From UHGV virus genome UHGV-0179687: 36,267 bases of DNA. One strand, written 5' to 3'. Below the pieces are notes generated by a model that saw only the letters and a list, made by a program, of their open reading frames with translations, did no database searches and was not told where the DNA came from. Positions within the stretch are counted from its first letter, which is position 1, and each line of letters begins with the position of its first letter. The position numbers and the translations under genes are program-made. The stretch is from a virus. Below, one piece after another: positions 2,217 to 14,968 of the stretch.

Positions 2217-3437
2217 TTATAGTGTGGGGTTATCTATCTTTTTATATTCAAATAGCATATCAATACTTCTTTCGAGTTTGTAAAAATCAGTTAAGGGGTA
2301 TAGTTTTACAATGTCCTCTTCGAAGTTTTTAATTCCAGACAGTTTTTCTTGACTTTGAAGATATCTCTTTGACATCATCAATTCTATTGAATTTTCTGTT
2401 ATTGATGAATGATCTAATGTTTTTAAGACCTGCCACGAAATAGGTGGCGTAAAGTCGAATAATGTGGAGAGTTTAGGGCAAAAATTTTGTTTTACCGTTT
2501 GTTCATATGTAACTTTGGGTGGAAATACAACATTTATTGAGCGGTTACTTAATCGTGAATTAGGCATTTTTGTAGAGAAGTAAGCTACACCGACAATTTT
2601 CGAGTAAGTTTTTCTACTAATCCATTGCATCAACAAATTAGGGATAATGTACTCTTGTATGAATGTTGCAGAACGATGATTTTTTAAATAATTACATGCA
2701 ATAATTAAAGGCCAGAAAATGAGATAAGAGGCCTTTACTCTATTTGTTTCGGCTAGTTTATTTTCGTCAGCGTAATCTGGTGAGGGATGTAACAAAAGCT
2801 GTGATGCAAAGTTTAAGACTTTATATTCAGTTTCACTGGTAGTAAATGATGAAATAAAAAGCTTGTCAAAATCTGGTTTTTCCATCTCCTGCCAACAAAC
2901 ATAAACCGAAGTGCCAAGATATAAACATGGTAAGCCAGCGACTGAATATCTTTGTGCACTAACAAAATGTCTATTGGAGAATGGAATATGGAAAATTTCA
3001 TCTCTTGACGTTAGAGGATTTTCACTTTTTCTAACTCGAAATAATGGTTTTTTATGATTGCAAATGCTACTGAGTGGAGTAGTGATGCGATGTATGTGTT
3101 GGATTGTTGAGTTATCAGAGAATGTTTTATCAAAGTGGTCATATGCTGACTTGATATCACCTGATAAAAAACTTTCAAGTGATAATGTTATTCCATTTTG
3201 AATGTTCTTAACTTTGCTGATTAATTCATCAAAATTCGGCATCCCATCTTTATTGTTGCTTTTGTATTTAATTATTGTTTTTAGATACTTATCGCAACGT
3301 TCAGTGAAGTCACTTATTATATCTCTATGTACTATAAGTGGAGGGTTTAATTTTGGTTCGGAAATGACTTGTTTTAATAATGAGTTTAAATGGTTCTCAA
3401 ATAACTTTTCTTTATTGACTTTGTTTTTAATATCCAT
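2217..3437 (-). CDS. hypothetical AT-rich cargo protein, 406 aa, with a possible RES-like motif
   Basis: Long minus-strand ORF starting 10 nt after the int stop. Hand-counted G+C about 27-30 % against about 55 % in the structural genes. Segment PFSNRHFVSAQRYSVAGLPCLYLGTSVYVCWQEM resembles the Arg / LY-L / Glu pattern of RES domains; this is weak and from memory. Confidence 0.6.
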   Translation of the reverse strand: MDIKNKVNKEKLFENHLNSLLKQVISEPKLNPPLIVHRDIISDFTERCDKYLKTIIKYKSNNKDGMPNFDELISKVKNIQNGITLSLESFLSGDIKSAYDHFDKTFSDNSTIQHIHRITTPLSSICNHKKPLFRVRKSENPLTSRDEIFHIPFSNRHFVSAQRYSVAGLPCLYLGTSVYVCWQEMEKPDFDKLFISSFTTSETEYKVLNFASQLLLHPSPDYADENKLAETNRVKASYLIFWPLIIACNYLKNHRSATFIQEYIIPNLLMQWISRKTYSKIVGVAYFSTKMPNSRLSNRSINVVFPPKVTYEQTVKQNFCPKLSTLFDFTPPISWQVLKTLDHSSITENSIELMMSKRYLQSQEKLSGIKNFEEDIVKLYPLTDFYKLERSIDMLFEYKKIDNPTL

Positions 3438-3447
3438 TTTGATAAGC

Positions 3448-4467
3448 TCAAATAGTTAACATATGTAAAGGGTTTTTGGTAACGGCATCTTCAAGATGGT
3501 CTGGGGAAAAATGAGAATAAACCATTGTCATTTTTATATCTGTATGACCGAGAATCTCTTTAAGAACAAGTATGTTTCCTCCGTTCATCATAAAATGGCT
3601 GGCAAATGTATGACGTAATACATGGGTGCATTGACCCTCTGGAAGCTCAATACCGGCCCGCTTTACTGCACGCTCAAAGGCTTTTCTGCAGGGCGAGAAT
3701 AACTTCCCTCGGTTTTTAGGAAGTTCGTTGTACAGCTCCTGAGATATCGGCACGGTACGGTTTTTCTTGCCCTTCGTCTTGGTATAAGTGATGCGGTATT
3801 TGGATAACTGATGGCCCTGCAGTTTTTCGGCTTCACTCCACCGTGCGCCGGTAGCTAAGCATATTTTGGTAATCATTAGTAGGCTCGGGCTTTGAGATTC
3901 AGCACATGCAGCCAACAGGCGTTTGATTTCCTCCGTGGAAAGAAAGGCTAGTTCACCTTCAGCAATTTTAAATGTTGGAAGCCCGGCAAGAGGGTTGGGG
4001 GCTGACCAGTGGCCCAGCTTTTTCAGTGTACCAAAAACCGATGATAGGTTGCGTTGTTCAAGGTTTACCGTGCGGGGCTTAACGGGCGACATCAGCGTGC
4101 CATCTTCATTTCGCACTTCACCTTTTAGCCGTGCTTCGCGGTATTTCGTAAAGTCACCGGCAGTCAGCTCTGAAGCGATGGGATCGCCCAGACCATTACA
4201 GATAATTCCAAGTTTCGCCATGAGTCGCTTGGGGTCTGCGAGTGTCTGACCATACAGGGAATACCACAGCTCAATTAATTCTGATAGGCGTCGCCGATCA
4301 TCCTTTTCACCCAACCACGGTTTTTTATTCACTTCTTCCATTGTGAAGCTTTCAAACGCAATGGCTTCGCCTTTCGTGGCAAATTGCTTACGCACGCGCT
4401 TGCCATTGCGTCCATTGGGATAGCACTCACACAACCATTTTCCGTTCGGCTGTTTTCTGATGGTCAT
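3448..4467 (-). CDS. int: P2-type tyrosine integrase
   Basis: 339 aa. N-terminal RNGKRVRKQF, then TGARWSEA, HVLRHTFASHFMMNGG and LGHTDIKMTMVYSHF (Arg, His-x-x-Arg, catalytic Tyr), typical of P2 Int. Confidence 0.9.
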   Translation of the reverse strand: MTIRKQPNGKWLCECYPNGRNGKRVRKQFATKGEAIAFESFTMEEVNKKPWLGEKDDRRRLSELIELWYSLYGQTLADPKRLMAKLGIICNGLGDPIASELTAGDFTKYREARLKGEVRNEDGTLMSPVKPRTVNLEQRNLSSVFGTLKKLGHWSAPNPLAGLPTFKIAEGELAFLSTEEIKRLLAACAESQSPSLLMITKICLATGARWSEAEKLQGHQLSKYRITYTKTKGKKNRTVPISQELYNELPKNRGKLFSPCRKAFERAVKRAGIELPEGQCTHVLRHTFASHFMMNGGNILVLKEILGHTDIKMTMVYSHFSPDHLEDAVTKNPLHMLTI

Positions 4468-4468
4468 A

Positions 4469-5101
4469 TCAAAGGCTCTTAATGATTTTCAGTGCGCGGC
4501 CTACTACCTCAATGTCATCCAGGCCGCACTCAAACGATGAATCATCCTGATGCACTACTAATTTGTTTCCCGGGAGTCGAGTCAATTTAACAATGCTTTT
4601 TATCCCGTCGATATCGACTAACCACATACCATTTACTAGTGGTGTTTGGTTGCGATCTATTAAATAAGAATCACCAGAAGTAGTCACCAGCAGTAGGTTG
4701 CTTGAGTCTGAGGGGAGTATGCTGCTATCAATGATTGCTTTTCCAGCATCGATCAATAAACCACCGTTGAGAGTCGCCTTGTCAATTTCAGGAGATACTA
4801 GTTCAGAAAGAGGTATAACCTTGCTGGAGTTCACGGAGTTGATATTTTTTTGGGGTTCAATGTTTGAACCTGGCTCCCCCTGTCCGGTGGTTAGCCACAG
4901 TAAAGAAACTCCTGTTTCCAAGGCGCACTGAATCACCCACTCTGCAGGAAAACTATCTCTTAAGTATCTGTTTGCCATGGTACTTTTTGATGCGCCCAAG
5001 TGATCGCAAAGTTGCTGTCTGGACTTGAAATCATAGGCTGCCATTAGTCTATGGATAGCCTCTCTTCCCCCTGTATTCTCTCCAGCCTTTACCTGTATCA
5101 T
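4469..5101 (-). CDS. cI: 186-type CI immunity repressor
   Basis: 210 aa, directly upstream of int on the same strand and divergent from the Apl-like/cII genes. N-terminal HTH-like region. Size and position match phage 186 cI. Confidence 0.7.
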   Translation of the reverse strand: MIQVKAGENTGGREAIHRLMAAYDFKSRQQLCDHLGASKSTMANRYLRDSFPAEWVIQCALETGVSLLWLTTGQGEPGSNIEPQKNINSVNSSKVIPLSELVSPEIDKATLNGGLLIDAGKAIIDSSILPSDSSNLLLVTTSGDSYLIDRNQTPLVNGMWLVDIDGIKSIVKLTRLPGNKLVVHQDDSSFECGLDDIEVVGRALKIIKSL

Positions 5102-7046: not shown

Positions 7047-7900
7047 GCACCATCCTGAAATGGGCGGGTAATAAAACCGCCATTATGTCCGAACTGAAAA
7101 AACACCTTCCTGCTGGCCCGCGACTGGTTGAACCTTTCGCGGGTTCTTGTGCTGTGATGATGGAGACGGATTACCCCAGCTATTTGGTTGCGGATATTAA
7201 TCCTGATTTAATCAACCTCTATAAAAAGGTTGCCGCTGATTGTGAATCGTTTATATTTCGCGCCAGAGTTTTATTTGAGATCGCAAACAGGGAGGTGGCT
7301 TATTACAACATAAGGCAGGAGTTTAATTACTCCACTGAAATTACTGATTTCATGAAAGCGGTATATTTCCTGTATCTCAATCGTCACGGTTACCGTGGTT
7401 TATGTCGCTATAACAAGAGCGGGCATTTCAACATTCCCTACGGTAATTATAAAAATCCGTATTTCCCTGAAAAAGAACTTCGCACATTTGCAGAAAAAGC
7501 CCAGCGAGCAACGTTTGTCTGCGCCAGCTTTGATGAAACGCTGGCGATGTTGAAGGCGGGGGATGTGGTGTATTGCGATCCGCCGTATGACGGTACGTTT
7601 TCCGGCTATCACACTGATGGTTTCACTGAAGATGACCAGTATCACCTGGCATCCGTTCTTGAACATCGGTCATCAGAAGGACATCCGGTCATTGTTTCTA
7701 ACAGTGACACATCCCTGATCCGTTCGCTGTATCGCAATTTTACTCACCACTACATCAAGGCAAAACGCAGCATCGGCGTAGCAGCTGGTGAGAGTAAATC
7801 TGCAACAGAAATCATTGCTGTTTCCGGGCCGCGCTGCTGGGTGGGATTTGATCCTTCGCGTGGCGTGGATAGTTCTGCCGTGTACGGAGTGCGTGCATGA
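7043..7900 (+). CDS. dam: DNA adenine methyltransferase (Dam-like)
   Basis: 285 aa with the DPPY catalytic motif (VYCDPPYDG) and the N-terminal PFAGSCAV AdoMet-binding-like segment. Confidence 0.85.
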
Positions 7901-10311
7901 GCCATGCTGATATGAACAATTGCAGCGGCTTTAACGAGGCCGCCGCAGCATTCTCATGGAACAGCCCGAAAAAGGCTATTAACCCTTATCTGGACCCGGC
8001 GGAAGTTGCGCCGGTTTCTGCGCTTTCAAACCTGATCACTCTGTACGCTGCCGATAACGAGCAGGAACAACTGCGCCGCGAGGCACTGAGTGATCAGGTC
8101 TGGGAGCGTTATTTCTTTAATGCATCCCGTGATCCTGTCCAACGCGAAATGGAGCAGGATAAGCTCATTAGCCGGGCAAAGCTGGCGCATGAGCAGCAGC
8201 GTTTTAATCCGGACATGATCATACTGGCGGACGTTAACGCCCAGCCTTCCCATATCAGCAAGCCGCTGATGCAACGTATTGAATACTTCAGCAGCCTGGG
8301 CAGGCCAAAGGCTTATTCCCGCTATTTGCGTGAGACGATTAAGCCATGTCTGGAACGACTGGAGCATGTACGCGACAGTCAGCTATCCACTTCTTTTCGC
8401 TTTATGGCAAGCCATGAAGGGCTGGACGGCCTGCTGATCTTGCCTGAATTGAGTCAGGATCAGGTGAAACGCCTGTCTACTCTTGTCGCTGCGCATATGA
8501 GTATGTGTCTTGATGCCGCTTGTGGTGATTTGTACGCCACCGATGATGTTAAGCCAGAAGAAATCCGCAAGACATGGGAAAAGGTGGCAGCAGAAACCCT
8601 GCGACTGGATGTCATACCGCCTGCGTTTGAGCAACTCCGCCGGAAAAGAAACCGCCGTAAACCCGTGCCCTATGAACTCATTCCGGGTTCGCTGGCGCGT
8701 ATGTTGTGCGCCGATTGGTGGTACCGTAAATTATGGAAGATGCGTTGCGAATGGCGGGAAGAGCAGTTGCGTGCTGTTTGTCTGGTCAGCAAAAAAGCAT
8801 CTCCCTATGTCAGCTATGAAGCCGTGATGCATAAACGTGAGCAGCGCCGTAAGTCGCTGGAGTTTTTCCGTTCTCATGAACTGGTGAACGAAGACGGCGA
8901 CACGCTGGACATGGAGGATGTGGTAAACGCCAGCAGCACCAACCCTGCACATCGCCGCAATGAGATGATGGCCTGTGTTAAAGGTCTGGAGCTTATCGCG
9001 GAAATGCGCGGTGACTGCGCCGTTTTTTACACCATCACCTGTCCGTCACGTTTCCATTCCACGCTAAATAACGGCAGGCCCAACCCGACCTGGACAAACG
9101 CGACGGTAAGACAAAGCAGTAATTATCTGGTCGGCATGTTTGCTGCATTTCGTAAGGCGATGCACAAAGCCGGGTTGCGCTGGTATGGCGTGCGGGTGGC
9201 TGAGCCGCATCATGACGGCACAGTTCACTGGCACCTGTTGTGTTTCATGCGCAAAAAAGACCGCCGCGCCATTACTGCATTGTTGCGTAAGTTTGCTATC
9301 CGTGAAGACCGCGAGGAGCTGGGTAATAACACGGGGCCACGCTTTAAGTCTGAGCTGATAAACCCGTGCAAAGGAACGCCGACTAGCTACATCGCGAAAT
9401 ACATCAGTAAGAACATTGACGGGCGTGGTCTGGCTGGCGAGATCAGCAAGGAAACGGGTAAATCTCTGCGTGATAACGCTGAATACGTTAATGCCTGGGC
9501 GTCTCTGCATCGTGTTCAGCAATTCCGCTTCTTTGGCATTCCGGGACGTCAGGCTTACCGTGAACTGCGATTGCTGGCTGGTCAGGTGGCAAGGCAACAG
9601 GGTGACAAAAAAGCAGGTGCGCCGGTACTGGATAACCCGCGCCTTGATGCCATTCTGGCTGCAGCTGATGCTGGTTGTTTTGCCACCTACATCATGAAGC
9701 AGGGCGGCGTACTGGTTCCCCGTAAATATCACCTCATCAGAACCGCTTATGAAATCAACGAAGAGCCGACCGCCTATGGCGATCACGGCATTCGTATTTA
9801 TGGCATCTGGTCACCCATTGCAGAGGGCAAAATCTGCACTCATGCAGTGAAGTGGAAAATGGTTCGTAAGGCCGTTGACGTTCAGGAGGCGGCAGCCGAC
9901 CAGGGCGCTTGCGCCCCTTGGACTCGTGGCAATAACTGTCCCCTTGCTGAAAATTTGAACCAACAAGGGAAAGACAAATCAGCTGATGGGGATACCAGAA
10001 CGGAGATCACCCGCATGGATGACAAGGAGTTGCACGATTACCTGCACAGTATGAGCAAAAAAGAGCGCCGGGAACTGGCAGCAAGGTTACGCCTGGTGAA
10101 ACCGAAATGGCGTAAAGACTACAAACAGCGAATTACAGAGCATCAGCGTCAGCAGCTCGTCTATGAACTGAAGTCCAGAGGATTTGATGGCAGCGAGAAA
10201 GAGGTCGATCTGCTCCTTCGCGGTGGCAGTATTCCGTCAGGAGCAGGCCTGCGTATCTTCTATCGGAACCAGCGTTTGCAGGAAGATGATAAGTGGCGGA
10301 ACCTGTATTAA
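7897..10311 (+). CDS. A: replication initiation endonuclease (P2 gpA-like)
   Basis: 804 aa. His-hydrophobic-His motif (TVHWHLLCF) and a downstream YIAKYISK tyrosine segment typical of rolling-circle initiators. Sits where P2 gene A does. Confidence 0.9.
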
Positions 10312-10403
10312 TTACGCGGGTTAACAATTCGTGCTCTTAATAATACCAGGCATATCAGGCTGATGAACGTAAAAAAACGTTTTACATCAGTAAGATTATT
10401 ATA

Positions 10404-10423
10404 TACTGTAAATATAAACAGTG
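10404..10423 (+). promoter_or_regulatory. LexA (SOS) box
   Basis: tACTGTaaatataaACAGtg matches CTGT-N8-ACAG with an AT-rich spacer, about 45 nt upstream of the ORF at 10465. Confidence 0.7.
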
Positions 10424-10464
10424 GCTATACATACAGTGTTGCGTGTGGTGTCATAGGAGGAAAG

Positions 10465-10653
10465 ATGCAGGACTATTTTTTGGAGTCTTTGAAGCTCCAG
10501 CGCATTGATTTTTTTCTTAAGCTTGTAGCGGCTAGTGAGTGTAGTGATGAAGAGAAGGGGCTGGCTTTGCAATGGGTTTCTGAACTGACAGATGAACTCA
10601 TGGCAAAAATCAGAACCCACGAATACAACCGCTCAATGGATGTCATCAGCTGA
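10465..10653 (+). CDS. small hypothetical protein downstream of the LexA box
   Basis: 62-aa ORF with RBS aggagg. No motif recognised. Confidence 0.5.
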   Translation: MQDYFLESLKLQRIDFFLKLVAASECSDEEKGLALQWVSELTDELMAKIRTHEYNRSMDVIS

Positions 10654-10663
10654 GGTGACTTTT

Positions 10664-10897
10664 ATGCGCATTGAAATAATGATCGATAAAGAGCAGAAGA
10701 TTAGCCAGTCTACCCTGGACGCCCTTGAATCCGAGCTTTACCGCAATCTGCGCCCCCTGTATCCCAAGACGGCGATCCGCATTCGCAAAGGCAGTGCCAA
10801 CGGTATCGAGTTGACCGGCTTAAAACTTGATGAGGATAAGCAGCGGGTAATGGAAATTATGCAGCAGGTCTGGGAAGACGACAGCTGGCTGCATTAG
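10664..10897 (+). CDS. dinI: DinI-family protein
   Basis: 77 aa, MRIEIMIDK...DALESEL...KQRVMEIMQQVWEDDSWLH, matching DinI conserved positions (MRIE start, DAL-x-EL, KQR-x-x-EI-x-Q-x-WE...W). Confidence 0.8.
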   Translation: MRIEIMIDKEQKISQSTLDALESELYRNLRPLYPKTAIRIRKGSANGIELTGLKLDEDKQRVMEIMQQVWEDDSWLH

Positions 10898-11183
10898 CGA
10901 ACGTTGCGGACGATAAAACTGGCTTTTACCGTCCGCAAGGTTGAACAACGAGCCGTGCGAGGCGTTAGAAATTGCCTTTGTTAGTGCCTGCTTCTCATAA
11001 GAGGCACTATATATGCTAAATGCAGTGGTTTAAGGCAGAAACATCTTGCGCGATTAGGGGCAATGAACTTAAGTTAAGTAACGCAACCAACAGTTAAAAC
11101 GGTTGTCTTAGTTATAAGGAACTTGCTGTTGTGGTTGCTGGTGACGAAGTGTACACTTCCGCGCCGTATAAGAAGGAGGGGTT

Positions 11184-11402
11184 ATGTCAAGTATCGCCGC
11201 ATTGAAGCTGGGTAATCCAGTTGAACGTTTGGCACGGGTTCTGAAAGAGAACCAGGACAAGCTCAATCTGAGTAAAGATGGTTTTGTGTCCGTAGATTTG
11301 TCCAACGAAGAAGCTATGAAAGCCATCCGAGATCAGATGGATAAGCTTGAAGGCATCAAAACGAGCACTGTTAAAGCAAAATATTATTACAGAACCCGAT
11401 AA
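11184..11402 (+). CDS. small soluble hypothetical protein (first gene of accessory pair)
   Basis: 72 aa, strong RBS aaggaggg. Stop overlaps the next start (TAATG). Confidence 0.6.
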   Translation: MSSIAALKLGNPVERLARVLKENQDKLNLSKDGFVSVDLSNEEAMKAIRDQMDKLEGIKTSTVKAKYYYRTR

Positions 11403-12244
11403 TGGCAACATTACTTTTAGCAGTGATTTTGGTTAGTGGTTTTATATATGTAAACCTATCACTTTCAACACGTTATAGATATAAGCGTTCCAATGGCTGG
11501 GACGCTTATTTTTTTGTGGCTGCATGGGGAATTGTCTTTTTCCTCGCTGGCGGCTTCCTTACCTTCGCTCTTAACATCAGCGGTGGGTTTCGCTGGTTTT
11601 CTAATGCGCTGAATCTGACTCCAGACAGCTTTAACGGGATGTTATCCACCACAACCGATAAACCGCAGCGCATCAATGAAATTAAGCAAATCGCGTGGGT
11701 TGTGATTTCAATAGTTCTCGCGGCGCTGTTCGGTTGGCTAAACAAACGCCGTACTTCAAAGGGGGATCGCCGTTGGGATGCACTGGCAAAGGCAGTGGGA
11801 AACAATGCTTTTGAATCGCTGCTCATGGAAGCATCAGCTCGCCAGTTTCCTATCATTGCTACACTTTCATCACGCAAAATCTATGTAGGGCTGGTGACTT
11901 GCCCTGCGTTGGAAAATGGATTGTCGGAACACCTTGAAATTCTCCCCTTGCTGAGCGGATATCGTGATAAAGACGACCTAACGATAAATATCACGACAAA
12001 CTATCATCAGCACTATCTTGATAGCGGTGTTATCAATGGGATGTCGCGCCTGAATATCCAGGATTTCCGTGTGCTTCTCCCTAAAGATGAAGTTGAAACC
12101 ATCTCGTTTTTTGATACTGAAACGTATAACAAATTTAAAGAAAACGAAGCGCGTGACCGGAAAGACTGCCGCAAGTTGGGTGGTAAAAAGCCATCCGCAC
12201 GCAGGAGAAAGACTGCTGGCGACGCAGAGCAGGGTAGTGCATGA
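11402..12244 (+). CDS. membrane protein with three N-terminal hydrophobic helices and a C-terminal soluble domain
   Basis: 280 aa. Hydrophobic segments LLLAVILVSGFIYVNLSL, YFFVAAWGIVFFLAGGFLTFAL and IAWVVISIVLAALFGWL, then about 170 soluble residues and a basic tail. Confidence 0.65.
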   Translation: MATLLLAVILVSGFIYVNLSLSTRYRYKRSNGWDAYFFVAAWGIVFFLAGGFLTFALNISGGFRWFSNALNLTPDSFNGMLSTTTDKPQRINEIKQIAWVVISIVLAALFGWLNKRRTSKGDRRWDALAKAVGNNAFESLLMEASARQFPIIATLSSRKIYVGLVTCPALENGLSEHLEILPLLSGYRDKDDLTINITTNYHQHYLDSGVINGMSRLNIQDFRVLLPKDEVETISFFDTETYNKFKENEARDRKDCRKLGGKKPSARRRKTAGDAEQGSA

Positions 12245-12459: not shown

Positions 12460-13893
12460 ATGATCCAGCCAAAAGTTTTTATATCCTATAGTTGGTCAAG
12501 TAAAACTCATCAGCAACATATCAAAGATATGGCTGAACGATTGGCGGCAGATGGAGTTGAAACTGTCATAGATATTTATGACTTGAAAGAAGGGGATGAT
12601 AAAAATTATTACATGGAAAGAATGGTTCAAGATGAAACGGTTACGCATGTTTTAGTCATTTGTGATAAAAAATACTCAGAAAAAGCCGATTTAAGAAAAG
12701 ATGGTGTCGGTGTTGAGTCGATGATAATTTCCCAGGAAATATATTCATCCGTGTCGCAGTCCAAATTTATACCATTAATATTTGAGTACAAAGATAATGG
12801 AGAGCCGTATACTCCAATCTTTCTGAAGTCTAGAATCTATATTGATTTTTCAACGCCAGAAAAAGAAAATGATAATTGGGAGCGTTTAATCAGGTTGCTT
12901 TATGGAAAACCAGAATTTACTAAGCCACCATTAGGTAAGCCTCCGGTTTATTTAGAGCAAGACACGTCAAAACCGACGTATGAAATTCATGCAAAATTTC
13001 AAACTTTAAAATCAGCTGTCTTAAATCAAAAGCAGACATTAAAGGATTGCAGAAGGCAATTTTTAGAGGTGTGCCGAAATTATTGTATCTCACTACAAGT
13101 CGTAACAAACCCAACTACTGAAGATTTTGCAGCGGAAGTTTTGCAAATTCATAAAGAGCTTATTGCCGTTAGGGATGCCATTACAGACTGGGTTTTACTT
13201 GAGGGTGATACGCAGGGCGAAGACTTTTCCAAAGCACTATTACAGTTTATGGAAGTAATGTTAGCGATTAGAAATCGTCCGAAAAATGTAAATTCATATA
13301 ATGAAATATGGTTTTTGCCCCATCAGATTTTTGCGTATGAAACGTTTTTATATATTTTGGCGGCTTTAATAAAAATTGAAGCTTTCCAGCATGTACATAC
13401 ATTACTGCATACATCTTATTTGCTACCCGATCATATAACCAGTCCGGGAATGGAGTTTGCTAATTACAGTGAGTTATATTTAAGCTCTGATTACCTTCAA
13501 AGTAAATTGTCCCCTGAAAACTATCGACTGTATTCCCCTGTTGCTGAGTTAGTAAAGCAAAGTGCAACTAGAGATGATGTGTCTTTCGATGATTTGAAAC
13601 AAGCTGATCTTGTTGCTCTTATGATATCCTTCATTAATCCCGGTATTTTTTGGTACCCGCAAATGTTGTTGTATTCCGGGCACTATGAGAAATATCCTCT
13701 ATTTACAAGAGCAATACAGCATAGAGGATTCAAGAGTATTGCAGTTATTACCGGAATCGATGACAGTAAACTTTTGGCTCAAAAGCTGACAGAGGGTGAG
13801 GCCCAGCGAAATACTAATAACTGGTATCATTTCGGTTTTAATAGAGACTTTCTCAATAAAATGAATGTTAGTCGTCTAGATAGTATTGAATGA
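12460..13893 (+). CDS. TIR-like domain protein with an unrecognised C-terminal domain
   Basis: 477 aa. N-terminus KVFISYSWSS...VLVICDKKYSEK...GVGVESMI fits a TIR/TIR-like fold signature (FISYS strand, later acidic residue). RBS aagggagg. Hand-counted G+C about 27-35 %. Confidence 0.7.
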   Translation: MIQPKVFISYSWSSKTHQQHIKDMAERLAADGVETVIDIYDLKEGDDKNYYMERMVQDETVTHVLVICDKKYSEKADLRKDGVGVESMIISQEIYSSVSQSKFIPLIFEYKDNGEPYTPIFLKSRIYIDFSTPEKENDNWERLIRLLYGKPEFTKPPLGKPPVYLEQDTSKPTYEIHAKFQTLKSAVLNQKQTLKDCRRQFLEVCRNYCISLQVVTNPTTEDFAAEVLQIHKELIAVRDAITDWVLLEGDTQGEDFSKALLQFMEVMLAIRNRPKNVNSYNEIWFLPHQIFAYETFLYILAALIKIEAFQHVHTLLHTSYLLPDHITSPGMEFANYSELYLSSDYLQSKLSPENYRLYSPVAELVKQSATRDDVSFDDLKQADLVALMISFINPGIFWYPQMLLYSGHYEKYPLFTRAIQHRGFKSIAVITGIDDSKLLAQKLTEGEAQRNTNNWYHFGFNRDFLNKMNVSRLDSIE

Positions 13894-13927: not shown

Positions 13928-14968
13928 TTAGTTTTCAATATCTAAGGTGTAGGGCTCAAAGCGGATCACTTCTTCGCCCAGCCAGTCGTTAAGCTCCTGC
14001 AGTCGCTTCTGCAGCGGCATCAGCTCGTTGCGGACAAAGACGCGGCTGGCCTTTTCCACATCACCAAAGCCGCCGGTATTGTTGGGAATGATGCCCATCA
14101 TCTGCGGCGGCACGCGGTGAGCAGCCATCATGTCATCACGGCTCACGTTCTTGATGTTCAGAAATTCATCCTTTGCCGCAACTTCCGACAACGGGATTAT
14201 CTGGATGCCGTCCTTTTTACCGTTGGGCGAATACATAAACAGGTTGCGGAAGTTGCCCGGCCCTTTGGCGCTTTTCATTGCCTGGCGGATATTGTTCACG
14301 TCCTCCTGATTCTGTGCTGCGTCGGTCATGTACATGATGAAACCCGCGTGGCTGCCGTTGATGTAATACTTCCGGCGAAACAGCGTTGCTGACTCGTTGA
14401 GCAGGGTTGACGGGATGGCGGAGAGATAGCCGGGCAGCCCGTAAATCTCCTGATTAATATCCGGTTCCAGCAGATGAAAGATGTTGCCCTGCGTAAATTC
14501 ATAGGGCTGCGTGGTCATGCCATACTGCACAAACCAGTAGGTGTCGAGATCCACGCCGCGCCGTGTGTACTTCGCCAGTGCTGGCTCCAGCGAGAGAACG
14601 CTGCCGAGCCGGTTGGTGCGCTTTTCCAGATAGGCGTTACCGAACACCAGATAATCCTGGACGAAACGGGCAAAAGCCTGCTGGCTGAGCAGGCGGTGCG
14701 GGATATAGGTACTGCTGAGAATGTCACGCTTAACGGCAATCGGTGAGCTGTGATGCACGGCGGCGCGATAGGTCCGCGCCAGTCCGTCAAAGCTCACCGG
14801 CGGTTCATACCAGCGATCCATCTGCACGCATTCCACGTAGTCCAGCAATTCGCGTCGGTCTAACACCGGCACCGGGTCGCCAAAGCTGAACGCCTCTGCC
14901 GCAGCACCGCCTGAATTTGCGTTGTGATCTACTGCTGCGCGGTTATTCTTGTTTTTACGTTTGCTCAT
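13928..14968 (-). CDS. Q: portal protein (P2 gpQ-like)
   Basis: 346 aa, upstream partner of the terminase as in P2. Conserved FSFGDPVPVLDRRELLDYVECV segment near the N-terminus. Confidence 0.9.
   Translation of the reverse strand: MSKRKNKNNRAAVDHNANSGGAAAEAFSFGDPVPVLDRRELLDYVECVQMDRWYEPPVSFDGLARTYRAAVHHSSPIAVKRDILSSTYIPHRLLSQQAFARFVQDYLVFGNAYLEKRTNRLGSVLSLEPALAKYTRRGVDLDTYWFVQYGMTTQPYEFTQGNIFHLLEPDINQEIYGLPGYLSAIPSTLLNESATLFRRKYYINGSHAGFIMYMTDAAQNQEDVNNIRQAMKSAKGPGNFRNLFMYSPNGKKDGIQIIPLSEVAAKDEFLNIKNVSRDDMMAAHRVPPQMMGIIPNNTGGFGDVEKASRVFVRNELMPLQKRLQELNDWLGEEVIRFEPYTLDIEN

Follow-up and report, generated by a model that had tools for sequence, protein, structure and literature searches.

A probable SOS operon with a split tum gene and a predicted double LexA operator in a Fels-2-like prophage

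In 186-like phages the switch to induction is a LexA-repressed antirepressor of the Tum type. Such antirepressors bear on SopEPhi transfer in the inflamed gut and, in E. coli HS, on the tracking of prophages. [quoted passage not shown] Its gene is annotated in the 186 genome as 'expression repressed by LexA; inhibits CI DNA binding', and the promoter that drives it, p95, is an established LexA-repressed promoter. In Fels-2 and PSP3 the tum gene is split, with the antirepressor encoded upstream and a DinI homologue downstream (PMC3121763, citing Bunny et al. 2002); the PSP3 annotation describes tumA as 'similar to 5' end 186 tum; UV induction of prophage' and tumB as 'similar to dinI and 3' end of 186 tum'. 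DNA damage induces the Fels-2 operon STM2726-2728, with STM2727 rising 5.5- to 14.8-fold under the mutagen MX, and SopEPhi has been reported as induced through Tum. In the DuoHS prophage of E. coli HS, deletion of ECHS_RS04495 from start to stop as "tum" abolished induction by mitomycin C, and the non-cleavable lexA(Ind-) blocked induction as well, while the SOS reporter of the delta-tum strain responded normally, according to the Phollow study (PMC12055606). The switch itself is already published, both the LexA-repressed Tum antirepressor and the splitting of tum in Fels-2 and PSP3 (PMC3121763); the present analysis adds two modest leads, a double LexA operator and the invariance of TumA against a diverging C-terminal domain of CI.

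The window analysed here is the whole 36,267-nucleotide stretch of the virus genome UHGV-0179687. An earlier note on this DNA had placed a LexA operator, a 62-aa ORF and a DinI-family gene behind the replication gene, and each of these is found where it was placed. The region is very probably the SOS operon of a Fels-2-like prophage (Felsduovirus, P2/186 family), the counterpart of p95-tum of coliphage 186 with tum divided between two cistrons. The features discussed below are the following.

4469-5101, minus strand: cI, 186-type immunity repressor (Pfam Phage_CI_repr, 5e-31, and Phage_CI_C, 1.5e-28)
10381-10409, plus strand: candidate p95-like sigma-70 promoter, read from the sequence, laid out as 186 p95
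10404-10423, no strand assigned: predicted LexA box 1, TACTGTAAATATAAACAGTG, core CTGT-N8-ACAG at 10406-10421, overlapping the -10 hexamer
10419-10438, no strand assigned: predicted LexA box 2, CAGTGGCTATACATACAGTG, core GTGG-N8-ACAG at 10421-10436
10465-10653, plus strand: tumA, 62 aa, a predicted antirepressor standing alone, with remote homology to the N-terminal half of 186 Tum
10664-10897, plus strand: tumB/dinI-like gene, 77-aa DinI-family protein (Pfam PF06183), own Shine-Dalgarno sequence GAGGTGA
10900-10942, plus strand: strong stem-loop after dinI, RNA fold of -21.6 kcal/mol (z = -5.0), without a U-tract

In the ORF map of the window the SOS unit lies directly after the replication gene gpA (7897-10311), which is preceded by int, a 186-type cI, apl, cII and dam in the order known from Fels-2 and 186. 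The window holds tumA together with a 186-type CI/Apl/CII switch. The succession of gene A and the ORF is common to 186, Fels-2, PSP3, SopEPhi, MLG42, ESSI-2 and DuoHS. At the far side the conserved module ends with the stem-loop at 10900-10942, and for most of the related phages and E. coli genomes the megablast alignments end at about 10968. The stem-loop may act as a partial terminator or as a stabiliser of the 3' end; in 186 the partial terminator t95a occupies the equivalent place.

The 62-aa ORF starts with ATG at 10465, preceded by the Shine-Dalgarno sequence AGGAGG at 10453-10458, and ends with TGA at 10651-10653. The Shine-Dalgarno sequence and the start codon are conserved in 36 of 37 loci, and in these 37 loci the reading frame stays open upstream for anything between 2 and 99 codons. 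A longer ORF of 96 aa beginning at ATG 10363 was rejected as the gene, since it would contain the promoter and the operator. Synonymous changes in tumA outnumber nonsynonymous ones in the closer comparisons, and the SopEPhi homologue shares 89% identity with the window ORF. Pfam, NCBIfam and PADLOC gave no match to the 62-aa protein. The AF2 model of TumA is a two-helix hairpin with a pLDDT of 90, for which a Foldseek search of the PDB returned generic helical hairpins, none at E <= 0.001, and was uninformative on function. A profile search of the TumA subfamily against 1.84 billion representative proteins recovered small members of 35-133 aa, matched at the C-terminus in the longer ones; a single large protein, of 1205 aa, was hit, in 10 separate stretches.

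Searches against PHROG profiles tie the ORF to the N-terminal half of 186 Tum. The window ORF matches phrog_698 at 3.6e-38, phrog_8554 at 2.4e-8 and phrog_1993 at 2.2e-3, residues 1-70 of 186 Tum match phrog_698 at 5.9e-6, and cross-matches among the three families connect the window ORF with the N-terminal part of 186 Tum and with PSP3 TumA. An hhalign comparison with the 186 Tum N-terminal part and PSP3 TumA gave 45 collinear columns at E 4.7e-5, with a probability of only 68%. Pairwise BLASTP of the window ORF against 186 Tum found no match, and the homology to the Tum N-terminus is therefore remote, at about 19-22% identity. Taking PHROG, hhalign and synteny together, we judge the window ORF to be a distant homologue of the N-terminal half of 186 Tum and of PSP3 TumA. 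That the 62-aa protein is a LexA-repressed antirepressor, one of the two roles suggested for it earlier, is supported by this homology, by the identical synteny and by the deletion of the DuoHS gene. Window TumA is identical to ECHS_RS04495 in 61 of 62 residues, and the delta-tum primers fall exactly on the start and stop codons of the ORF, aligning without a mismatch to 10445-10467 and 10651-10673 of the window. The design of the deletion retains dinI and its Shine-Dalgarno sequence. No complementation of DuoHS delta-tum is described in the consulted text of PMC12055606; the deletion establishes that the gene is necessary for induction and implies neither sufficiency nor direct contact with CI.

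The second cistron begins 10 nt past the tumA stop codon. The 77-aa product matches PF06183 over the full length of the model (positions 1-63 of 63; E 1.4e-24, 86.6 bits against a cut-off of 24.2), and the protein is 40% identical to residues 71-145 of 186 Tum, with which it shares the conserved acidic C-terminal motif VWEDDSW. The NCBIfam DinI equivalog NF007893 scores 54.2 bits, under its cut-off of 111 bits for orthologues, and the protein is therefore a phage DinI-like paralogue rather than host DinI. A small hairpin at 10642-10659, spanning the tumA stop and the dinI Shine-Dalgarno sequence, was considered as a conserved coupling element or attenuator and was dismissed as a general feature, since most junctions do not conserve it.

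Transcription of both cistrons would start from a candidate promoter with the -35 hexamer TTTACA (10381-10386), a spacer of 17 nt and the -10 hexamer TACTGT (10404-10409), matching the annotated layout of 186 p95 (TTCACA, 18 nt, TACTGT). TATACT at 10402-10407 is an alternative -10, and both the preferred -10 and the transcription start are placed provisionally, by comparison with 186. A generic promoter scan did not call a promoter on the plus strand, because TACTGT agrees with TATAAT at three of six positions; the consensus match it returned on the minus strand, inside the palindromic operator, was regarded as a by-product of the AT-rich palindrome. Across 23 loci with a double box, the -35 hexamer and the TATACTGT block are strongly conserved and the spacer is variable.

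Box 1 overlaps the -10 hexamer and is the counterpart of the annotated LexA site at 186 p95. Of 39 related loci, drawn from many Enterobacterales, 37 have a LexA box in this position; the other two are a contig ending short upstream and a decayed copy. A second, overlapping box at 10419-10438 had been missed in the earlier note. The cores of the two boxes share one base and are offset by 15 nt, so that the operator of the window is a predicted double LexA box of the colicin-type layout. The ACAGTGG block and the second ACAGT are kept in 23 of 37 loci, with both N8 spacers varying, and about a dozen related loci have a single box; throughout, the blocks keep a fixed spacing as spacers and flanks diverge. 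By analogy with colicin operators, box 2 may raise the induction threshold.

These elements suggest the following course of events. In the lysogen, host LexA would sit on the operator, over the -10 hexamer and the start region, and block transcription of tumA and dinI. Upon DNA damage, activated RecA would provoke the self-cleavage of LexA and the operon would be transcribed. The helical hairpin of TumA would then bind the 186-type CI non-covalently and keep it off its operators, which would de-repress the early lytic promoter (Apl, CII, replication) and induce the prophage. The co-transcribed DinI-like protein may act on host RecA filaments and tune the SOS signal, as an accessory that is dispensable for the switch. 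The window itself shows the promoter and operator, a 186-type CI, and two cistrons that each have a ribosome-binding site, and the published genetics of the 98%-identical gene demonstrates that lexA(Ind-) and delta-tum both block induction, delta-tum doing so without impairing SOS signalling. Direct binding of CI and the loss of operator binding were demonstrated for 186 Tum only, and by analogy would extend to TumA and CI of the window; the contribution of DinI is likewise conjectural.

The close pairing of the two genes, 10 nt apart behind one LexA-controlled promoter, and the presence of both parts in a single polypeptide in 186 could also mean that the 62-aa protein works alongside the DinI-like protein as its partner or modulator, the two being directed at RecA and the SOS response and not at CI. 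The earlier note had suggested this as the other role, and it is not supported. By tblastn, 15 of 39 loci have tumA but lack dinI, among them phages ESSI-2 and ev015, and these solitary homologues carry the LexA box. The dinI module has been shuffled independently of tumA, with PSP3 TumB 86% identical to its window counterpart and PSP3 TumA 17% (first 48 residues). The DuoHS delta-tum strain retains dinI and gives a normal SOS reporter response, yet it cannot be induced (PMC12055606), and induction of Gifsy prophages was not significantly changed by non-polar deletions of dinI. We regard such a modulator role of the 62-aa protein as very unlikely. It is somewhat less credible still that tumA and dinI form one gene, with full-length Tum made by frameshifting or read-through and the split being apparent or a sequencing error. 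The combined 62 and 77 aa come near the 146 aa of 186 Tum, the dinI frame is open upstream to 10592 and overlaps the 3' end of tumA, and in PSP3 tumA and tumB share a frame, separated by the stop codon and one further codon. Against this, the 24 loci with dinI (186 left out, as the parts are already fused there) have gaps of 3-12 nt between the genes and show all three frame offsets, 0, +1 and +2, and therefore no single recoding event could be conserved. At every junction inspected dinI has its own Shine-Dalgarno sequence and ATG. The window would need a +1 shift, and a reading of its sequence revealed no canonical slippery site; the profile search of 1.84 billion representative proteins gave no protein of about 146 aa with the match at its N-terminus, the form expected of a 186-like fusion, and more than a thousand E. 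coli genomes have the identical split.

A fortuitous AT-rich palindrome in an intergenic region could likewise pass for a LexA box, in which case the operon would follow the early or late programme of the phage rather than SOS. The bare 16-mer pattern is indeed not significant: CTGT-N8-ACAG occurs once in the window against 0.41 expected, and at least once in 33 of 100 shuffles. A LexA weight matrix, built from E. coli SOS boxes (training sites 13.0-26.9 bits), nevertheless ranks box 1 first (23.6 bits) and box 2 second (13.1 bits) among the 36,248 positions of the window. The CTGT, ACAGTGG and ACAG blocks hold their fixed spacing through the double-box and single-box loci alike, and in the one locus with a decayed tumA (L038) the box has decayed too. 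The lexA(Ind-) phenotype of DuoHS, as reported in PMC12055606, the response of Fels-2 STM2727 to a mutagen and the established LexA repression of 186 p95 also speak against a chance match, to which we attach almost no credence. The preferred reading remains a LexA-repressed operon in which TumA would act on CI.

CI of the window is the presumed target of TumA. It is 33% identical to the CI of 186, 58% to that of Fels-2 and 44% to that of DuoHS, and with so low an identity to the latter two the pairing of TumA with CI is extrapolated from relatives. The divergence from DuoHS CI is uneven, with 77% identity in the N-terminal domain and 33% in the C-terminal domain, and TumA identity tracks the N-terminal domain of CI (rho 0.77) above the C-terminal domain (rho 0.31). 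The invariance of TumA under a diverging C-terminal domain hints at the N-terminal domain as the target. A combined proposal for the Fels-2 lineage, which we put forward as a tentative and rather doubtful one, is that the double operator sets a higher or later SOS threshold for the commitment to lysis than the single-box type of 186 and PSP3, and that a near-invariant TumA recognises the conserved N-terminal DNA-binding domain (about residues 1-80) of CI repressors with strongly differing C-terminal domains. In Fels-2, DuoHS and SopEPhi, pairwise identities of the CI C-terminal domain range over 26-80%. If true, a Fels-2-like prophage could, through its SOS operon, trans-induce relatives whose CI is of another type. 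For induction thresholds and for prophage cross-talk, the double operator and the constancy of TumA against varying CI types are modest leads.

The gene is widespread and poorly labelled. About 1,125 of 5,426 complete E. coli genomes have it, and 482 protein clusters represent it across Enterobacterales; databases carry it as 'hypothetical protein', as RefSeq does for ECHS_RS04495, or under the spurious name 'levan regulatory protein', and its PHROG family has no assigned function. A literature search for tumA/tumB returned no relevant match. The gene could safely be named TumA, SOS-inducible CI antirepressor, which would be of value for annotation.

The p95-tum-orf97 operon of 186 agrees with that of the window in its position after gene A, in a LexA box lying over a TACTGT -10 hexamer, in a 186-type CI/Apl/CII target, and in having the antirepressor part N-terminal with the DinI-like part behind it. 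It differs in encoding one polypeptide of 146 aa together with DinI-only products from an internal start, where the window has two cistrons, and in having a single LexA box where the window has two; the place of orf97 is taken in the window by other cargo. The split architecture is shared with PSP3 and with STM2728/STM2726.1 of Fels-2. PSP3 departs from the window in that its TumA belongs to the 186-like subfamily (phrog_1993), its LexA box is single and its tumA is in frame with tumB, whereas Fels-2 STM2728 is 98% identical to the window ORF and its operator is the same double box. DuoHS tum likewise has the double operator, and where the deletion primers lie its flanking sequence does not differ from that of the window; the difference lies in its CI.

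Outside the P2/186 family, the dinI-antirepressor (gfoA/gftA)-irsA operons of Gifsy-1/2/3 are also LexA-repressed and combine a small antirepressor with a DinI homologue, and the Gifsy repressor is inactivated non-proteolytically and reversibly, in likeness to the system proposed for the window. The Gifsy operons differ in their reversed order, with dinI first, and belong to lambdoid phages with an unrelated repressor family. The closest parallel to the operator layout is that of the colicin gene cea of ColE1, where CTGT-N8-(A/C)CAG is followed by GTGG-N8-ACAG with the same one-base overlap of the cores and the same 15-nt offset. We checked this operator in NC_001371, where it lies 45 nt upstream of the colicin E1 ATG; its boxes score 20.9 and 15.0 bits with the matrix that gave 23.6 and 13.1 bits in the window, and the Fels-2 operator matches it at 31 of 35 positions by manual count. 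At colicin operators a double box takes up two LexA dimers, which gives tighter repression or delayed induction and guards against untimely, lethal expression. The ColE1 boxes are placed downstream of the -10 hexamer and control a colicin, whereas in the window box 1 overlaps the -10 hexamer and the predicted double operator would control an antirepressor.

The window carries a P2/186-family prophage with the gene order int, CI, apl, cII, Dam methylase and gpA, and the locus that follows gpA is an SOS operon already known from Fels-2-like phages, their split tum operon, in which an antirepressor gene (tumA) and a DinI homologue (dinI, or tumB) form two cistrons. The features concerned are as follows.

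3448-4467, minus strand: int
4469-5101, minus strand: CI, 210 aa
7043-7900: Dam methylase
7897-10311: gpA replication endonuclease
10381-10386: -35 hexamer TTTACA, read from the sequence downstream of gpA and followed by a 17-nt spacer
10404-10423: LexA 20-mer TACTGTAAATATAAACAGTG (box 1), core CTGT-N8-ACAG at 10406-10421
10421-10436: core GTGG-N8-ACAG of the overlapping box 2
10465-10653, plus strand: 62-codon ORF (tumA), with AGGAGG, ATG at 10465 and TGA at 10651-10653
10664-10897, plus strand: 77-codon dinI-like ORF, with GAGGTGA and ATG at 10664, 10 bases past the tumA stop

The LexA motif, the small ORF and the DinI gene after the replication gene, all described in the earlier note, were confirmed. 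The 77-codon ORF matches the DinI family of Pfam (PF06183; E 1.4e-24, 86.6 bits against a cut-off of 24.2 bits), and by its sequence the product is clearly a DinI-family protein. A strong stem-loop without a U-tract lies 3' of dinI (paired bases 10900-10942, -21.6 kcal/mol, z = -5.0), and similarity to most related phages and genomes ends near 10968.

The motif CTGT-N8-ACAG alone is not significant, occurring once in the window against 0.41 expected and at least once in 33 of 100 shuffles. Under a LexA weight matrix built from 20 chromosomal E. coli SOS boxes, box 1 ranks first (23.6 bits) and box 2 second (13.1 bits) among 36,248 window positions. In a comparison set of 33 loci of different Enterobacterales species plus phage records, a LexA box lies upstream of tumA in 37 of 39 loci. 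The two box-less loci are L010, whose contig is cut short upstream, and L038 (Siccibacter turicensis, 1400-1563), a decayed copy in which only 20 codons of tumA are left and the LexA box in front of it is missing its ACAG half; this joint decay is consistent with gene and box forming one functional unit.

The double operator is present in 23 of the 37 loci, among them the window, Fels-2 and DuoHS, and consists of CTGT-N8-ACAG and GTGG-N8-ACAG at a 15-nt offset, with cores overlapping by one base. The 23 distinct double-box sequences differ in their flanks and in both N8 spacers but hardly at all in the -35 hexamer, TATACTGT, ACAGTGG or the second ACAGT, a pattern that points to selection on both boxes. 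A single box with a correspondingly shorter leader is seen in 186, PSP3, ESSI-2, ev015 and the Pantoea, Tatumella and Erwinia loci. The colicin E1 (cea) operator of ColE1 has the same double-box layout as the window: a 38-mer of that operator matches NC_001371 exactly, 45 nt upstream of the cea ATG, and its boxes score 20.9 and 15.0 bits with the same matrix. Overlapping double boxes of colicin genes bind two LexA dimers and so prevent untimely, lethal expression; by this analogy, box 2 would be expected to make repression tighter and commitment to lysis later, presumably through an effect on the induction threshold. A promoter scan also returned a sigma-70-like match on the minus strand inside the operator (10398-10427, TAGCCA-18-TATAAT, 10 of 12 positions), which serves no obvious ORF and is probably a by-product of the AT-rich palindrome.

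The 62-aa ORF has no model in Pfam, NCBIfam or PADLOC, and its 482 clusters in a collection of 5.8 billion proteins are, in all 120 listed, unnamed, 'hypothetical' or, once, 'levan regulatory protein'; its genomic context is diagnostic despite the missing models. Its profile matches are phrog_698 (3.6e-38), phrog_8554 (2.4e-8) and phrog_1993 (2.2e-3). PSP3 TumA matches phrog_1993 at 2.7e-32, and residues 1-70 of 186 Tum match phrog_1993 (1.5e-23), phrog_8554 (3.4e-12) and phrog_698 (5.9e-6, positions 6-44 on 6-44), so that these profiles link the ORF with PSP3 TumA and the N-terminal part of 186 Tum. Aligned by hhalign as a 15-sequence family against 186 Tum-N plus PSP3 TumA, the ORF gives E 4.7e-5 with a probability of 68%, in 45 collinear columns from residue 2 onward. 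The relationship is remote, since pairwise BLASTP of the ORF against 186 Tum returned no match, but consistent. The Shine-Dalgarno sequence and ATG of the 62-aa start are kept in 36 of 37 loci, with in-frame extensions upstream ranging from 2 to 99 codons, and synonymous changes exceed nonsynonymous ones in the closer comparisons. AlphaFold2 predicts a helical hairpin with confidence (helices 2-23 and 28-61, mean pLDDT 90), for which Foldseek found no informative neighbour in the PDB.

In 24 loci dinI is a separate gene 3' of tumA, at a gap of 3-12 nt. A conserved frameshift or read-through fusion of the two is excluded, because all three frame offsets occur and the junctions inspected give dinI a Shine-Dalgarno sequence of its own. 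A TumA profile search of 1.84 billion representative proteins gave 87 clusters, 86 of them small proteins of 35-133 aa with the match C-terminal in the longer ones, the exception being a 1205-aa protein with 10 matched stretches; none was a protein of about 146 aa matched at its N-terminus, as in the 186-like fusion. With the window's proteins PSP3 shares 86% identity in TumB (the window's DinI) and 17% in the first 48 residues of TumA. The two modules are exchanged independently, which together with the locus survey makes tumA the constant element and dinI the facultative one. Non-polar dinI deletions in Gifsy had no significant effect on induction, a result which a facultative dinI fits. The earlier note had offered the 62-aa protein either as a LexA-repressed antirepressor or as a modulator acting with DinI; the partner role is argued against by these deletions and by 15 of the 39 loci, phages ESSI-2 and ev015 among them, that have tumA and its LexA box but no dinI. 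In these two phages (L005 1445-1725 and L006 1449-1713) the tumA-like ORF, 41-49% identical in tblastn and unannotated in the ESSI-2 record, has a single LexA box and is followed directly by a convergent gene and then by the portal gene.

The antirepressor interpretation, on the other hand, is right and already in the literature, being carried by the homology to Tum, with its shared PHROG families, and by published work. Tum binds its cognate repressor and blocks operator binding, and its second half resembles DinI (Lemire et al. 2011, PMC3121763); the same paper describes tum as split in Fels-2 and PSP3, the antirepressor lying upstream of the DinI homologue, on the strength of a personal communication by G. 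E. Christie that Bunny et al. 2002 cite. In the E. coli HS prophage DuoHS (Phollow, Nat Microbiol 2025, PMC12055606) a 98%-identical gene is necessary for induction: neither lexA(Ind-) nor markerless delta-tum strains showed lysis or viral foci after mitomycin C, and the SOS reporter was induced normally in delta-tum. The supplement names the deleted gene as ECHS_RS04495, with primers that fuse its start and stop codons. Both junction primers align to the window with 0 mismatches, one at 10445-10467 with its end on the ATG of the ORF, the other at 10651-10673, from its TGA into the dinI start. The HS genome records ECHS_RS04495 as a 'hypothetical protein' of 62 aa immediately 5' of a 'DinI-like family protein', and it shares 61 of 62 residues with the window ORF. 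In a microarray study STM2727, part of the predicted Fels-2 operon STM2726-STM2727-STM2728, rose 5.5- to 14.8-fold with the mutagen MX together with canonical SOS genes. The SopEPhi homologue is 89% identical, and induction of that phage is reported to go through the antirepressor Tum.

The anatomy, homology and conservation of the SOS operon were observed directly, and it is very probable that LexA would hold a p95-like promoter off through the double operator, that SOS induction would free transcription of tumA and dinI, and that TumA would sequester a 186-type CI and de-repress the lytic promoter, with the DinI-like protein as a presumed accessory that would modulate RecA filaments. Direct CI binding has been shown for 186 only, and TumA presumably pairs likewise with CI in the window's own phage. 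The window's CI was compared with those of loci L002, L042, L043 and L044. The window, Fels-2 and DuoHS share 100% identity in the TumA core (residues 1-48) and 71-83% in the CI N-terminal HTH domains, where the block SKST.A.RY.RDSFPAEWVIQCALETG is nearly invariant, but only 26-51% in the CI C-terminal domains. Over ten phages TumA identity follows that of the CI N-terminal domain with a Spearman rho of 0.77 and that of the C-terminal domain with 0.31; as the pairs lack phylogenetic independence, this can serve only as a hint at contact between TumA and the DNA-binding domain, the putative target, which would fit the annotation 'inhibits CI DNA binding'. The comparison further suggests that a single TumA type could serve several CI types, including those of relatives with a different CI, in which case co-resident prophages could cross-induce each other. 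PSP3 CI (L003 3219-4079) is 286 aa long, against 189-210 aa for the CI of 186, Fels-2, DuoHS and the window; in the alignment its N-terminal HTH region, unlike theirs, is present in two copies ahead of the C-terminal domain.

Cargo genes lie beyond dinI, in a slot with different contents in Fels-2, SopEPhi, DuoHS and 186, and further ORFs, one of them apparently cargo, lie at the prophage end.

11184-12244, plus strand: two-gene cassette in the variable region, encoding 72 aa and 280 aa in that order, the stop of the first gene overlapping the start of the second
12460-13893, plus strand: TIR/SEFIR protein, 477 aa (PADLOC bSEFIR defence model, E 9.9e-103), in the variable region that separates the portal gene from the tumA-dinI module
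13928-14968, minus strand: portal gene
2217-3437, minus strand: 406-aa ORF, 11 nt downstream of the integrase stop
1063-1890 (275 aa) and 644-1165 (173 aa), minus strand: two overlapping ORFs

The 477-aa protein also matches Pfam SEFIR (1.5e-14) and TIR_2 (2.7e-13). The cassette proteins match phrog_9843 (4.9e-36) and phrog_3630 (1.1e-98), both families of unknown function, and nothing above threshold in Pfam, NCBIfam or PADLOC; transcripts from the SOS promoter may read through into the cassette. The 406-aa ORF, which matches phrog_7835 (2.8e-145, likewise of unknown function) and nothing in Pfam, NCBIfam or PADLOC, looks like a moron-type cargo gene. By eye, the ORFs at 644-1890 resemble the two pieces, N-terminal and C-terminal, of a second tyrosine integrase broken by a frameshift, which would be a degraded copy beside the prophage end.

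Identical or near-identical TumA occurs in Fels-2, SopEPhi and DuoHS, and the gene is present in about 1,125 of 5,426 complete E. coli genomes. The remaining value of the locus lies in the annotation gap for the 62-aa gene, with two modest leads: the conserved colicin-type double operator and the invariance of TumA against divergent CI repressors. In 186 the p95 promoter, with a LexA site over its TACTGT -10 hexamer, precedes tum at the same position after gene A, and the record reads 'expression repressed by LexA; inhibits CI DNA binding'. Its Tum is a single protein of 146 aa, whose residues 71-145 share 40% identity with the DinI-like protein of the window; internal starts also yield DinI-only products, and the partial terminator t95a occupies the position equivalent to the stem-loop after dinI. 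PSP3 has two annotated cistrons, tumA ('similar to 5' end 186 tum; UV induction of prophage') and tumB ('similar to dinI and 3' end of 186 tum'). Fels-2 has the same gene pair as the window: STM2728, 98% identical to the 62-aa ORF and labelled 'hypothetical', and STM2726.1, a DinI-family protein 'similar to TumB'.
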